Positions 31,642 through 51,445 of a DNA stretch of 64,000 nt are shown here, in pieces; position 1 is the stretch's first letter; each line of letters starts with the position of its first letter. Origin of the DNA: Escherichia coli (GTDB lineage Bacteria; Pseudomonadota; Gammaproteobacteria; Enterobacterales; Enterobacteriaceae); NCBI RefSeq assembly GCF_044324875.1, contig NZ_CP172185.1; one strand, given 5' to 3'. The notes under the pieces are model-generated. The model saw only the letters and a list, made by a program, of their open reading frames with translations. It had not been told where the DNA came from and ran no database searches. Position numbers and translations under genes: made by a program.

Positions 31642-33777
31642 TTATTCGATAAGGCTTTCTGAAGGGGTGATCAGTTGCGGGTTCAGGCAGCTTTCATAAT
31701 AGGCCTGAATCTTCATCATGCGAGTACGATGACGCTGGTAACGACGCCAGGCCTGTACGCCATTATAAATGGCGCTACCCAGCATCGTCAGTAGCAGCAG
31801 TGTGGTGCTGAGATAGCGCCACAGGCCGGAACGATCCGGGATCGGATGAAGGCCTATATGCTGCGTACCATTGGCGTCAGTGAAGATTTTTGTGACGATA
31901 CCTTCGGCGTTAAACGGCGTATGCATCAGCATTTGTGCCAGTTTCTGGAAAGCGTTCCACTGTTCTTGCGGCGGGTAGTCGTAAAGTGATGCCGAAGGCC
32001 AGGGCTGATCAACAAAATCGCTGCCTTCGTCGCTGACAATCAGGAATCCACCGGGAGCCGGACTGTTTAGTGATTGTGCCGCTCGCGCCGTTTCATGCGT
32101 GATAAACGGCGCGGTGGAGGTTGCCACCAGGTTATCCAGTGATTCCGCACTCACCGGGCGTAATAACACATTCACGCCATCGAGTTTCCCGGCGTTGGCG
32201 CGTTTTACCAGCGCGTCCCAGTCTTTACTGTTGCCGAGATTGACCAGCGCATTTTTCAGTCGCACACAGTCATCTTTGGCATAACACAGATCCGCTGTCT
32301 TCAGTACTATGTCGCCAAAATCATCAAGCAATACCATGCCGGATTTTTGAATTGCTGAACGTAATGAGGCGCTGACGCGAGATTCATCTTCCGGTTTAGG
32401 GTGCAGCTGGCGATTAACTGCTTCGGTCAATGCCGTCGCTTTGTTGACCAATTCAGATTCTGGTAATGGCAATGAGCGGGCGTCATTCCAGATGATCTGC
32501 GAGCAGTCAAACGGTAAAAAAGGTGAGTTGGTTTTCGCGCTCCAGGTACCGGAAGTGCGAATATTACACATTCCCGTACCGCTAATACGCAATGTATCGC
32601 CAACCCGCACGCCAGCGTCAGCCAGTTGTTTCACGCTGGTGGCTTCAATGGTCTGCGCGCCTTTCATCCACGAGAGGGTGAATTTCAGCGGCATATCCAG
32701 CGGGATCCAGAATAACAGCATAAACAGCACCAGTAGCGAGCCCGCAGCGATAATCGTACTGCGCAGCCAGTGCTGTAACGGAAAGTTTTTTACTTCATCA
32801 TGGAGCGAAAGATATCGCCCCTGACGCACTACGTGGCGGTCGAGATAGATATCGATATCGGTTTGTTGACCGAGATCCTGAGCAATGTATGGCTGCCAGT
32901 GTGCGGGGTAGACCAGGTCGATAATACCGAGTGAAATATTGTTGATCTGTTCCTGATCGTTTTCGCCAAACAATCCCCAACGACGGGGTGTACCGCGCAG
33001 ACAATGAATTTCCCGCAGGGAGGATTTTGCCGGGGGCGCGAATAGCCCCCACAGACCTGCGCCCAGCAGCAGTAACGCGCCGCCTGCCAGCCACGGAACA
33101 AATACATCCGGGGTAATCAGGCAGAAAAAGAACATTAGGAATGAGGCGACAATCAGCAACGCTTCACGCAGCCCGCGCGGACGACTTAGCGCATACTCTT
33201 CGTGCGTTTCTTTGCGAATATTGAGTAGCTCGATTTGCTCACTCTCTTCCCCGCGAATCGACGCCTGTGTTGACGGAACAGGTTGCAAGGCATAGCCGCG
33301 AGTTTCCTGCATGTACTCCTGCAGCGTATGACCGTTGAGTGAAATAACCAGCGGCAGCGAATCGGTATGAATCAGTTCAACGGTATTCTCATCGTTGATG
33401 TACTGCTCCCAGAAAGGGGGCAGGTGGACTTCTACCGAATCGAGGTAGTAACGCCATTTATTCGGATCGTCGGTAGAGATGCCGTAACGCGTGATAGCGT
33501 GTGTCAGCATCATGACGTTGTTGCTTTCGGCATTCAGCGCCAGAGAGATCGGTGCCGCGCTGGCTCCCGTTGGGCCAGGCACCTGTAATACCTGCGTCAG
33601 GCTCTCAAGATAATTTTCAACGGCGCTATGTTCTTCAGGTGTGAGTTTACGCGTTTGCGCATCCGCGAAGGCGTTGGTCCAGGGCAGCTGACGCCGTCTG
33701 GATCGCACTTTTATCAGCCATCCCGCAAGTAGTGAGCAGGCCAGCAAAGCAGCTAAAAAAATCACAATGGTGCTCAT
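31642..33777 (-). CDS. igaA: inner-membrane attenuator of the Rcs phosphorelay IgaA
   Basis: 711-aa ORF recognised as YrfF/IgaA. Confidence 0.9.
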   Translation of the reverse strand: MSTIVIFLAALLACSLLAGWLIKVRSRRRQLPWTNAFADAQTRKLTPEEHSAVENYLESLTQVLQVPGPTGASAAPISLALNAESNNVMMLTHAITRYGISTDDPNKWRYYLDSVEVHLPPFWEQYINDENTVELIHTDSLPLVISLNGHTLQEYMQETRGYALQPVPSTQASIRGEESEQIELLNIRKETHEEYALSRPRGLREALLIVASFLMFFFCLITPDVFVPWLAGGALLLLGAGLWGLFAPPAKSSLREIHCLRGTPRRWGLFGENDQEQINNISLGIIDLVYPAHWQPYIAQDLGQQTDIDIYLDRHVVRQGRYLSLHDEVKNFPLQHWLRSTIIAAGSLLVLFMLLFWIPLDMPLKFTLSWMKGAQTIEATSVKQLADAGVRVGDTLRISGTGMCNIRTSGTWSAKTNSPFLPFDCSQIIWNDARSLPLPESELVNKATALTEAVNRQLHPKPEDESRVSASLRSAIQKSGMVLLDDFGDIVLKTADLCYAKDDCVRLKNALVNLGNSKDWDALVKRANAGKLDGVNVLLRPVSAESLDNLVATSTAPFITHETARAAQSLNSPAPGGFLIVSDEGSDFVDQPWPSASLYDYPPQEQWNAFQKLAQMLMHTPFNAEGIVTKIFTDANGTQHIGLHPIPDRSGLWRYLSTTLLLLTMLGSAIYNGVQAWRRYQRHRTRMMKIQAYYESCLNPQLITPSESLIE

Positions 33778-34096
33778 GCTTTCCCCATCTTACTTAGTCT
33801 GTCAGGCGTGGTCAGTCGCACCGGACACAAAACATGATTCTGCGGTTGGCTATCGGCAAGCGTGGAGTTTAACTTGAGCATCATTAAGCACATCACAGTA
33901 ACCGCTGATCATAGCAAACCCTCTGAAGGCGGAATATCAGCAAATTCCTGGAGTTATTTCAACCTATTGACTTTTAATTTGATTTGAGGACGATTATTTA
34001 TTAAGTTACATAAATGTAAATAACATGCAATTCACATTGCCGAAAGCGTGTCCTATATCGCACAATAACCGCTGATTTCACAGCATAGATCCCACG

Positions 34097-34657
34097 ATGA
34101 GCAAATCATTACAAAAACCCACCATTCTGAATGTTGAAACTGTAGCCCGTTCCCGACTGTTTACCGTCGAAAGCGTGGATCTGGAGTTCAGCAATGGCGT
34201 GCGGCGTGTTTATGAACGAATGCGTCCAACCAACCGGGAAGCAGTGATGATTGTGCCGATTGTGGACGATCACCTGATCCTGATCCGCGAATACGCAGTG
34301 GGAACTGAATCCTACGAATTAGGTTTTTCGAAAGGATTAATTGATCCGGGTGAAAGCGTCTTCGAAGCCGCGAACCGCGAGCTAAAAGAAGAGGTGGGAT
34401 TTGGTGCGAACGATCTGACTTTTTTGAAGAAGCTCAGCATGGCACCGTCTTACTTTTCCAGCAAAATGAATATCGTGGTAGCGCAAGATCTCTACCCGGA
34501 ATCGCTGGAAGGCGATGAGCCAGAGCCGCTACCACAGGTGCGCTGGCCGCTGGCGCATATGATGGATTTGCTGGAAGACCCTGACTTCAACGAAGCGCGT
34601 AATGTCAGCGCGCTGTTCCTCGTGCGCGAATGGTTGAAAGGGCAGGGGCGGTTGTAA
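34097..34657 (+). CDS. nudE: ADP-sugar/nucleoside diphosphate hydrolase NudE
   Basis: 186-aa ORF; Nudix box GLIDPGESVFEAANRELKEEVG. Confidence 0.9.
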   Translation: MSKSLQKPTILNVETVARSRLFTVESVDLEFSNGVRRVYERMRPTNREAVMIVPIVDDHLILIREYAVGTESYELGFSKGLIDPGESVFEAANRELKEEVGFGANDLTFLKKLSMAPSYFSSKMNIVVAQDLYPESLEGDEPEPLPQVRWPLAHMMDLLEDPDFNEARNVSALFLVREWLKGQGRL

Positions 34658-34670
34658 ATGCGTGAAGTTT

Positions 34671-34696
34671 GCCTGATGCATAATGCTTATCAGGCC
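34671..34696. repeat. REP-like palindromic unit downstream of nudE
   Basis: gcctgatgcataatgcttatcaggcc. Confidence 0.5.
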
Positions 34697-34798
34697 TGTG
34701 CGGCTCCTGCAATATATTGATTTTTCTAGATGTTGCTAGACGGGTAAAGTGTTCACGCCGTATCCGGTATAAACAAAGTGCACTTTGTCAGCAAACTT

Positions 34799-34822
34799 AA
34801 AAAGGCGCTGAAGCGCCTTTTT
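34799..34822. terminator. bidirectional rho-independent terminator between nudE and mrcA
   Basis: aaaaaggcgc-tgaa-gcgccttttt. Confidence 0.6.
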
Positions 34823-34824
34823 AA

Positions 34825-37377
34825 TCAGAACAATTCCTGTGCCTCGCCATTATCGATAATGGTCGTTCCCACCTCGTGCACCGCCTGTTGTGTCGGCTGC
34901 GTACCTTCGATGAAATACTCTTCGCGGCTGTTGCCACCATTAGCTAACTGCCCGGTGCTGCGATCGATATTCACCGTCACAATACCCGGCGGCGGCGTCA
35001 GCGGCTGCTCCGGCACACCTTCAAGAACGGCTTTCATATAAGCGTCCCATGCAGGCTGGGCACTCTTGGCACCGCCTTCGTAACCTGAGATCTGATCTTT
35101 AATCGCTCCGGAAGCCGTTGTATGACCGAGATTACGACGGTGATCATCAAAGCCAATCCAGACCGAGGTCACAACGCCCGGACCGTAACCCGAAAACCAC
35201 GCATCTTTCGAACTGTTAGTGGTACCGGTTTTCCCGCCGATATCGCGACGCTGCAAATCACGACCTGCACGCCAGCCGGTACCCTGCCAGCCTGGCTCAC
35301 CAAAGATATTGGTGTTCAAAGCACTCTTAATCAGGAATGCCAGCGGAGTGTTGATGACGTGCGGTGCGTACTCCTGCGCGCCAGTCTTCGCCACTAACGC
35401 CTGATTTGCCTGCTCCAGCTGCGGCATTGGCACAGAAACATTCTGCTGCTCGCGGGAGATAGCGACATCTTCAACATCGTTATTTTCCAGCACGTTCGAT
35501 TTCTGCGTATCACCGTAAATTACCGGAATATCGCATTCCGGGCAGGCTACTTTCGGTTTCGCTTCGAAAATCACGCCGCCCTGATCGTTTTCAATTTTGC
35601 TGATAAACCACGGGTCCACCAGGAAGCCGCCGTTCGCCATGACCGCGTAGCCGCGCGCCACCTGCATTGGGGTGAATGACGCTGAACCCAGCGCCAGCGA
35701 TTCGGTGTGGACAATGTTTTGCGCCGGGAAGCCGAAGCGTTGCAGATATTCTGCAGCGTAGTCGACGCCCATCGCCCGCATTGCGCGTACCATCACCACG
35801 TTTTTCGACTGGCCCAGTCCCTGACGTAAGCGAATTGGACCAGCATATTGTGGCGGCGAGTTTTTCGGCTGCCAGTCAGAACCGGCACCTGCGTCCCAGC
35901 GAGAAATTGGCACATCGTTCAACATACTTGCCAGCGTCAGACCTTTATCCATCGCCGCGGTGTAGAGGAACGGTTTGATGTTGGAACCCACCTGACGCAG
36001 TGCCTGGGTGGCGCGGTTAAACTTGCTCTGATTGAAATCAAAGCCACCGACCAGCGCCATAACGGCACCGTTTTGCGGATTGATCGACACCAGCGCCGAG
36101 TTCACTTCCGGCACTTGTGCCAGCCACCAAGCATCGCCAACCTGACGAACCCAGATTTGCTGACCCGTTTGCAGAACATCGGTCACTTTACGCGGCGTCG
36201 GTCCCTGCTGAGTATCCGAACGGTAAGGACGCGCCCAGCGAACGCCTTCCATACTCAATGCGACGGTCGACCCGTCCGCCAGCATCGCCGTCGCTTCCTG
36301 AGGATTGGCGCTGGTGACTGCGGCAGGTAGCAGAGGACCATAGGTCGGCAGCGCCTTCAACGTATCGGTAATCTTGTTGTTATCCCACGCCGACTCGCCC
36401 ACTTTCCACAGCACATTTGCCGGGCCGCGATAGCCGTGGCGCATGTCGTAGTCCAGCACGTTATTACGTACCGCCTGCTGTGCGGCCTGCTGCACTTTGC
36501 GGGTGATGGTGGTGTAAATGCGATAACCGTCTTCATAGGCACTTTCGCCATAACGGTTATACATCTCCTGGCGCACCATTTCGCTCAGGTACGGCGCAGA
36601 GAAAGCAATCTCCGGCGCGTGATAGTTAGCGTTAATCGCCTCAGTGCGTGTCTGATCGAACTGTTGCTGGGTGATATACCCTTCATCCAGCATCCGCGAC
36701 AGTACGACGTTACGCCGCGCGACGGCACGATCCATTGAGTAGAGCGGATTAAAGGTGGAAGGCGCTTTCGGCAGCCCGGCTATCACCGCCATTTCGTTCA
36801 GCGTCAGTTGGTCGACCGTTTTACCGAAATAGACTTGTGCCGCAGCACCGACACCATAGGCGCGGTAACCGAGGTAAATCTTGTTCAGATAAAGCTCGAG
36901 GATCTCGTCTTTCGTCAGCAATTGTTCAATGCGAATCGCGAGGAAGACTTCCTTAATCTTACGCATCAGCGTGCGTTCTGGACTGAGGAAGAAGTTTCTC
37001 GCCAGCTGCTGGGTAATGGTACTCGCCCCTTGTGACGCGTGGCCGGAGAACAGCGCCACACTTGCCGCACGGAAGATCCCCACCGGGTCAACGCCGTGAT
37101 GCTCGTAGAAGCGGCTGTCTTCCGTCGCGATAAAGGCTTTCACCATCTCCGGCGGGATTTGATCCAACGTAACCGGAATACGACGTTTCTCACCGTATTG
37201 AGCGATCAGCTCGCCATCGGCGCTGTAAATCTGCATCGGAATTTGCAGGCGAACATCTTTTAATGTCGCCACATCCGGCAGTTGTGGCTCGATGTAGCGG
37301 TATAGGCCATAAATCGAGCCTGCTCCCAGCAGAATGCAACAGACTGCAAGGATCAAAAAATACTTTACGAACTTCAC
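34825..37377 (-). CDS. mrcA: penicillin-binding protein 1A (bifunctional transglycosylase/transpeptidase)
   Basis: Frame 34825-37401; start assigned to GTG at 37377 (VKFVKYFLILAV) giving 850 aa. Confidence 0.9.
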   Translation of the reverse strand: MKFVKYFLILAVCCILLGAGSIYGLYRYIEPQLPDVATLKDVRLQIPMQIYSADGELIAQYGEKRRIPVTLDQIPPEMVKAFIATEDSRFYEHHGVDPVGIFRAASVALFSGHASQGASTITQQLARNFFLSPERTLMRKIKEVFLAIRIEQLLTKDEILELYLNKIYLGYRAYGVGAAAQVYFGKTVDQLTLNEMAVIAGLPKAPSTFNPLYSMDRAVARRNVVLSRMLDEGYITQQQFDQTRTEAINANYHAPEIAFSAPYLSEMVRQEMYNRYGESAYEDGYRIYTTITRKVQQAAQQAVRNNVLDYDMRHGYRGPANVLWKVGESAWDNNKITDTLKALPTYGPLLPAAVTSANPQEATAMLADGSTVALSMEGVRWARPYRSDTQQGPTPRKVTDVLQTGQQIWVRQVGDAWWLAQVPEVNSALVSINPQNGAVMALVGGFDFNQSKFNRATQALRQVGSNIKPFLYTAAMDKGLTLASMLNDVPISRWDAGAGSDWQPKNSPPQYAGPIRLRQGLGQSKNVVMVRAMRAMGVDYAAEYLQRFGFPAQNIVHTESLALGSASFTPMQVARGYAVMANGGFLVDPWFISKIENDQGGVIFEAKPKVACPECDIPVIYGDTQKSNVLENNDVEDVAISREQQNVSVPMPQLEQANQALVAKTGAQEYAPHVINTPLAFLIKSALNTNIFGEPGWQGTGWRAGRDLQRRDIGGKTGTTNSSKDAWFSGYGPGVVTSVWIGFDDHRRNLGHTTASGAIKDQISGYEGGAKSAQPAWDAYMKAVLEGVPEQPLTPPPGIVTVNIDRSTGQLANGGNSREEYFIEGTQPTQQAVHEVGTTIIDNGEAQELF

Positions 37378-51214: not shown

Positions 51215-51337
51215 AGTGCTCCTGGATTTTCTCTTTCTGGACATTGACGTCTCCACTGGTTTAAACACGGCAATGGAGACTGTGGTGAAAAGAGTTAATT
51301 CCCGGAGTGACTGGCAGGATGCCAATCAATGATCGGA

Positions 51338-51445
51338 AGCATGCCAAATCGTGATCGATTGTGATGCCAAACTGTGATCGGAGATGGATGCCAAATCATG
51401 ATCGATTCGAATGCCAAACTGCGATCGATTCAGATGCCATTTTGC
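51338..51445. repeat. IS21-family terminal repeat block (istA-proximal end) with about 5 iterated ~22-bp units
   Basis: gcatgccaaatcgtgatcgatt / gatgccaaactgtgatcgg / gatgccaaatcatgatcgatt / gaatgccaaactgcgatcgatt / cagatgccattttgc. Confidence 0.7.

Follow-up and report, generated by a model that had tools for sequence, protein, structure and literature searches.

The 319-bp spacer between the divergently transcribed genes igaA and nudE of Escherichia coli is an ordinary, compact and largely known divergent promoter region. Taken as a whole, the picture that we consider probable is that it contains a published ArcA box, the core promoter of nudE and the start region of igaA, and that the two similar sequences lying in these start regions (copy A at igaA and copy B at nudE) resemble each other fortuitously or as a peculiarity of the E. 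coli lineage.

The window, that is, the whole stretch of DNA that was analysed, is 64 kb of E. coli sequence. Positions 33700-34200 were matched at an identity of at least 95% in 5425 of 5426 complete E. coli genomes, in which the segment is annotated as igaA and nudE. Since igaA (- strand) extends to 33777 and nudE begins at 34097, the spacer comprises positions 33778-34096. It differs from that of K-12 MG1655 at two bases, 33831 and 34054, and the coordinate conversion was checked against this genome (MG1655 v3 coordinate = 3560246 - x, where x is the window position).

For the footprinting, the nudE locus was collected from 80 species of Enterobacteriaceae, in genera that include Escherichia, Citrobacter, Salmonella, Enterobacter, Lelliottia, Kosakonia, Raoultella and Kluyvera. 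The igaA-nudE spacers, 267-335 bp long and mostly of ca 320 bp, were excised and then aligned. Conservation in this alignment is sharply blocky. One block is the igaA ribosome-binding region, and the others are given below together with the remaining features of the locus.

31642-33777, - strand: igaA.
33894-33909, + strand: copy A of the repeat, CACAGTAACCGCTGAT; read on the - strand, it spans positions -8/-7 of the candidate igaA promoter, a G+C-rich discriminator and the predicted start region.
33908-33916, - strand: candidate extended -10 promoter of igaA, TGcTATGAT, assigned from the conservation pattern; conserved as five isolated invariant columns.
33933-33962, - strand (towards igaA): second sigma-70-like match, TTGAAA, 18 bp, GATATT; 9/12 in the promoter scan.
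33936-33947, no strand: conserved block ATCAGCAAATTC, kept in 73-80 of the 80 species at each column.
33957-33971: conserved block TTTCAA-N4-TTGAC.
33967-33972, + strand: TTGACT, with TTGAC in 80/80 species; back to back with TTGAAA on the opposite strand.
34003-34023, + strand (same orientation as nudE): ArcA box, AAGTTACATAAATGTAAATAA, a string identical to the entry of Park et al. 2013.
34005-34009 and 34016-34020: ArcA half-sites GTTAC and TGTAA, direct repeats, 11 bp centre to centre, read directly.
34005-34020: conserved block GTT.C...TGTAAA.
34006-34019, no strand: palindrome TTACAT-AA-ATGTAA (TTACATAAATGTAA), read directly.
34037-34042, + strand: nudE -35 element TTGCCG, with an 18-bp spacer to CACAAT; TTGC (34037-34040) is a conserved block.
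34061-34066, + strand: nudE -10 element CACAAT, at about -13 to -8; a conserved block, invariant in 80/80 species.
34061-34076, + strand: repeat copy B, CACAATAACCGCTGAT; core promoter of nudE, -10 hexamer to about +3.
34074/34075, + strand: nudE start, from the published -72 to -51 offset (PMC3798270) and the coordinate map; G34074 is a conserved column.
34097-34657, + strand: nudE.

The palindrome is the best documented element. A sequence-only reading of this DNA had placed it at 34003-34016, in a very AT-rich stretch, and had taken it for a regulator or nucleoid-protein site shared by both promoters. The symmetry is indeed perfect, the true position being 34006-34019, and the surroundings are AT-rich, with 25% G+C at 33950-34036 compared to 53% in the whole window. 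The 21-mer AAGTTACATAAATGTAAATAA that contains it is listed letter for letter as the yrfF_nudE ArcA box in Tables S1 and S4 of Park et al. 2013 (PLoS Genet, PMC3798270), with a score of 18.3 bits for the authors' position weight matrix (PWM) and direct-repeat (DR) scores of 8.86 and 10.95 bits. The box maps to 3526223-3526243 of MG1655 v3, which agrees with the published coordinates after the known genome-version offset.

According to the same study, the box lies within a ChIP-chip enriched region at 3524129-3524330 (old MG1655 coordinates; Table S1), a region detected by ChIP-chip only and not in the ChIP-seq replicates (PMC3798270). Expression of nudE is 2.6-fold up in the arcA mutant (Table S5), and the gene is among the directly repressed operons, with a lower anaerobic sigma-70 occupancy and the ArcA site lying between -72 and -51 relative to the mapped start of nudE (Table S6; PMC3798270). 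yrfF/igaA is absent from both Table S5 (expression) and Table S6 (directly regulated operons) of that work (PMC3798270). Of the proposed shared site, the regulator site thus stands and the regulator is ArcA, which responds to oxygen, with a documented effect on nudE only. The ArcA box upstream of nudE is already known from the literature, and its occupancy in vivo and its effect on nudE rest on Park et al. 2013.

The alignment agrees with this assignment. Two TGTTA-like direct repeats with 11-bp spacing and a high PWM score are found at 34003-34023, and the repeat cores are conserved in 80/80 species: G34005, T34006, T34007, C34009 and TGTAAA (34015-34020) are invariant, and the 21-bp segment keeps its length throughout, free of indels. 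The symmetry of the palindrome is kept far less. At position 34008 in the left arm, 39 species have A and 41 have G, with an invariant partner in the right arm; positions 34010 and 34011 vary as well, and in none of the 80 species does the invariant right arm change to compensate. The perfect 6+6 palindrome is present in only 19/80 species. A palindromic operator of a symmetric dimeric regulator is made unlikely by the arms that do not co-vary and by the mere 19/80 species with 6/6 complementary pairs. This pattern of conservation fits recognition of direct repeats and not of a palindrome, and the symmetry appears to be incidental within the ArcA box. Namely, the second direct repeat (DR2) is TGTAA instead of TGTTA, which makes the E. 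coli sequence accidentally a perfect palindrome.

A broader alternative was also considered, in which the palindrome is an operator of a symmetric dimer or a nucleoid protein besides or instead of ArcA, or in which TGTAAA serves as the -35 element (TTTACA) of an upstream promoter directed towards igaA. The perfect 6+6 symmetry in E. coli, the AT-rich stretch, the invariance of TTTACA in 80/80 species and a promoter-scan match on the - strand (TTTACA, 16 bp, AATAAT; 10/12) all speak for it. However, the arms do not co-vary and the symmetry is lost in 61/80 species, AATAAT is poorly conserved (48/80 species have A at position 2, and 31/80 have T at position 6), and the ArcA PWM score, the ChIP-chip signal and the arcA-dependent expression of nudE already explain the site. 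We therefore regard this alternative as quite unlikely.

Under the ArcA assignment, the site resembles the other two-repeat boxes of the regulon, such as that of pntA/ydgH (AAGTTAATTTAATGTTAAGTA; Park et al. 2013), in having TGTTA-like repeats spaced by 11 bp centre to centre. It also scores 18.3 bits with the authors' matrix, and it shares with them the location in a divergent intergenic region and the anaerobic repression of the adjacent gene. It differs in that DR2 is TGTAA and not TGTTA, and in that it was seen by ChIP-chip only. Another difference concerns the position: the site overlaps the RNA polymerase footprint in 52/66 repressed ArcA targets, whereas the nudE site, at -72 to -51, lies upstream of the footprint (PMC3798270). 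As the literature shows, phosphorylated ArcA binds the GTTAC and TGTAA half-sites and represses nudE ca 2.6-fold anaerobically, probably by hindering upstream contacts of RNA polymerase in the AT-rich DNA that precedes the weak nudE promoter.

That promoter coincides with copy B of the repeat. The two hexamers are properly spaced from the mapped start, as expected for a sigma-70 promoter. Conservation of the -35 element is complete for TTGC (80/80) and decreases over C34041 (76/80) and G34042 (68/80), and the start base G34074 is kept in 79/80 species. Copy B can be identified with the nudE core promoter because of the mapped start together with the 80/80 conservation of the -10 hexamer. Within copy B only this hexamer is conserved; the second half of the copy, AACCGCTGAT, forms the discriminator and the start region, and positions 34067-34076 vary freely between species. 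The weak promoter TTGCCG, 18 bp, CACAAT transcribes nudE from ca 34074, within copy B.

Some further observations concern the surroundings of this promoter. A 5+5 palindrome, GCAAT-TCAC-ATTGC (34027-34040), overlaps the -35 element; its right arm is invariant, and the bases of the left arm are kept in 60 (G), 78 (C), 54 (A), 75 (A) and 64 (T) of the 80 species. There is also an inverted pair, GCTATCGGCAA and TTGCCGAAAGC, at 33849-33859 and 34037-34047, which puts TTGCCG on both strands, once in the igaA leader and once as the nudE -35 element; the leader copy is moderately conserved (52-74/80). Downstream, Adams et al. 2021 (PMC7815308) list, in two data sets, a strong 3' RNA end that falls within nudE, at +85 (MG1655 3526061-3526064, - strand). 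It corresponds to window position ca 34181, at codon ca 29, with no U-tract after it, and suggests an abundant RNA of ca 108 nt that extends from the nudE start to this internal end.

On the igaA side, the assignment comes from the alignment. Between 33890 and 33922, the sole columns invariant in 80/80 species are A33908, T33912, A33913, C33915 and A33916, with columns 33914 and 33909-33911 being variable. Read on the - strand, these five columns give TGnTAnnnT, that is, TG at -15/-14, T at -12, A at -11 and T at -7. The candidate extended -10 sigma-70 promoter of igaA is supported by this pattern of invariance. The predicted start would be at ca 33899-33903, with a leader of ca 125 nt. The likeness to extended -10 promoters (TGnTATAAT) consists in just these positions being invariant in the 80 species, and, as in that class, there is no recognisable -35 element; the class is here assigned from conservation alone. 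The promoter of the igaA operon in Salmonella is reportedly the subject of a study by Garcia-Calderon et al. from 2009.

Copy A thus spans the -8/-7 positions, the discriminator and the predicted start region of igaA, and all of its columns except A33908 are variable among the 80 species. The conserved bases at its edge belong to the candidate igaA promoter, on the other strand. The orientation of copy A relative to the igaA promoter is the opposite of that of copy B relative to nudE.

Insertion data can be compared with this prediction. Insertions of IS elements at -47, -43 and -20 of igaA switch Rcs on and give mucoid mutants (PMC3861542, PMC11541549). All three positions fall inside the predicted leader, which fits an igaA start located upstream of them. 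In experimental evolution, IS insertions upstream of igaA (window 33797-33824) are recurrent, and the resulting E. coli are mucoid, macrophage-evading or phage-resistant (PMC3861542, PMC5495878, PMC11541549). We also found a natural IS1 in the spacer of E. coli AR_0019 (NZ_CP024889.1), at 33941-33948 with the target duplication CAAATTCC. It lies upstream of the extended -10 motif, which is left intact, and it parts TTGAAA from GATATT; the insertion is tolerated.

These two hexamers form the second sigma-70-like match towards igaA, in which TTTCAA (33957-33962) is nearly invariant and only 45/80 species retain the key T(-7), located at 33933. The neighbouring TTGACT at 33967-33972 has no conserved pattern of A at position 2 and T at position 6 located 16-18 bp downstream in the 80 species, and was rejected as a -35 element in the nudE direction for lack of a conserved -10 partner. 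Copy A was likewise rejected as a second promoter in the nudE direction: its CACAGT has no usable -35 element (TTGAGC at a 15-bp spacer), and in most species it reads CCCAGT, where the key A is missing. The block ATCAGCAAATTC and the TTTCAA-N4-TTGAC segment (together 33936-33971) are conserved across the 80 species beyond the elements accounted for. At about -35 to -46 from the predicted igaA start, they may be putative sites for a factor.

Other kinds of elements were also searched for. An Rfam scan of 33000-35000 gave no family with even a weak score in the spacer, and an sRNA or riboswitch located there was rejected on this ground. The RcsB box pattern TNRGANNNNTCYNA has 0 matches in the entire 64-kb window. 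By-eye comparison with the consensus sequences of sigma-32, sigma-E and sigma-54, and with the motifs of EvgA, TyrR, CRP, CpxR and PhoP, gave no fit in spacing or conserved bases, and these candidates were dropped.

As to the repeat itself, its existence can be confirmed. The ungapped core is 16 nt long, with 15/16 identities between CACAGTAACCGCTGAT (33894-33909) and CACAATAACCGCTGAT (34061-34076), and one gap of 2 nt lengthens the match to ca 25 nt (CACAGTAACCGCTGA--TCATAGCA vs CACAATAACCGCTGATTTCACAGCA). The length of ca 23 bp initially given for the repeat is supported by this gapped match, and the separation of about 170 bp by the actual spacing of 167 bp; of the two strings, the first (33891-33916) is exactly as quoted, and the second, quoted as 34060-34088, starts at 34059 (34059-34088).

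Within the spacer the similarity is improbable by chance. A 15/16 match was reached in 2 of 2000 dinucleotide shuffles of the 319-bp sequence, and the gapped score is 29 compared to a null of 14.2 +/- 2.3 (p ca 0.001 within the spacer). The repeat is nevertheless only weakly significant because 64 kb had been scanned to find it, and 0.24 such pairs separated by at most 300 bp are expected by chance per 64-kb window. Three pairs are observed in the window; apart from the present one, they are part of a true tandem array at 51317-51439. There is no other close copy of the 16-mer anywhere in the window. The tandem array, an observation apart, consists of 4.3 copies of a unit of ca 23 bp (ATGCCAAACCGTGATCGATTCG), can also be seen as having a period of 47, and is intergenic, between a 548-aa ORF on the - strand and a 97-aa ORF on the + strand.

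The decisive point is the conservation. The sequence-only reading, which took the copies for shared regulator sites, had named phylogenetic footprinting as the way to check this and repeats that are not conserved among close relatives as evidence against it. In the 80 species the repeat pair is not conserved, and copy A and the second half of copy B vary even among close relatives. The in-register identity between copies A and B is 15/16 in E. coli, 14/16 in its closest sister lineage (L004), 12/16 in E. albertii, 10-11/16 in three other Escherichia species, 6-10/16 in Citrobacter, Salmonella and Enterobacter, and about 4-5/16 in more distant genera, which is the level of chance. The gapped local score exceeds the null level in E. 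coli and L004 only, the median of the other species being 14 against a null of 13-14. An old tandem or segmental duplication of the 5' end of nudE was also considered. It is ruled out because the gapped score is null everywhere but in E. coli and L004; the similarity stops after ca 25 nt, and the relatives lack it.

Inside E. coli both regions are stable. Of 5420 matching records, 5408 show 100% identity over the copy A region, and in the copy B region most genomes differ from the window by one base in 50. This base is probably the T/G difference at 34054 that is seen relative to MG1655, which lies outside the repeat.

The near-identity of the copies is most likely a fortuitous or lineage-specific resemblance, since it is limited to E. 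coli and the sister lineage closest to it, involves freely evolving parts of the two promoters, and has opposite orientations relative to them. It may have been sharpened by a small number of substitutions or by a short conversion.

A stronger form of this last idea is that the repeat is functionless yet not pure chance, a template switch or gene conversion in the E. coli lineage having copied ca 16-25 bp from one start region to the other. Indeed, the A-B identity climbs stepwise towards E. coli, the extended gapped match exists in E. coli and L004 only, and at least four differences are specific to the lineage (33895 A, 34070 C, 34082 A and 34086 T), each of which raises the similarity. Such a series of states could reflect conversion, template switching or selection rather than chance. 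However, the same directional pattern is expected when the most similar pair is picked after the fact, a winner's curse by which recent changes look directional. Furthermore, a mismatch at 33898/34065 and the 2-nt gap persist between the copies, so that there is no clean conversion tract, and the ancestral in-register identity was already ca 9-12/16. A copying event of this kind is in our judgement rather unlikely.

The other alternative is functional, namely that copies A and B are paired operators of one E. coli-specific regulator that acts on both start regions and couples igaA to nudE. In its favour, the repeat is locally improbable, both copies are fixed in E. coli, and each overlaps a promoter start region, which is a typical position for a repressor. 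On the other hand, the pair is unconserved even within Escherichia (10-12/16), the half that the copies have in common, ACCGCTGAT, is the variable part at both loci, the window holds no further copies, and 0.24 pairs are expected in it by chance. In addition, a literature search found no published binding in the spacer apart from ArcA, and no single factor reported at both copies. Paired operators are thus very unlikely, and copies A and B probably do not serve one common regulator.

The region is similar to known divergent promoter regions that have a regulator site between back-to-back promoters. Here, the nudE promoter and the candidate igaA promoter face outwards at a distance of ca 170 bp and enclose a regulator site and AT-rich DNA. 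The difference is that a response to the regulator is shown for nudE only.

The overall importance of these results is small, as the functional palindrome is already part of the published ArcA regulon and the direct repeat fails the conservation test. As a by-product, the control region of igaA and nudE has been mapped base by base across 80 species. We consider it highly improbable that TGTAAA of the ArcA box doubles as an upstream igaA -35 element (TTTACA) or that the E. coli repeat is a real paired operator; if either were true, the respiration state or some factor would set the level of IgaA together with nudE. IgaA is essential and acts as the brake on the Rcs phosphorelay, which serves the envelope-stress response. 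It is this essential gene that the extended -10 promoter candidate concerns, and insertions upstream of it are recurrently adaptive.
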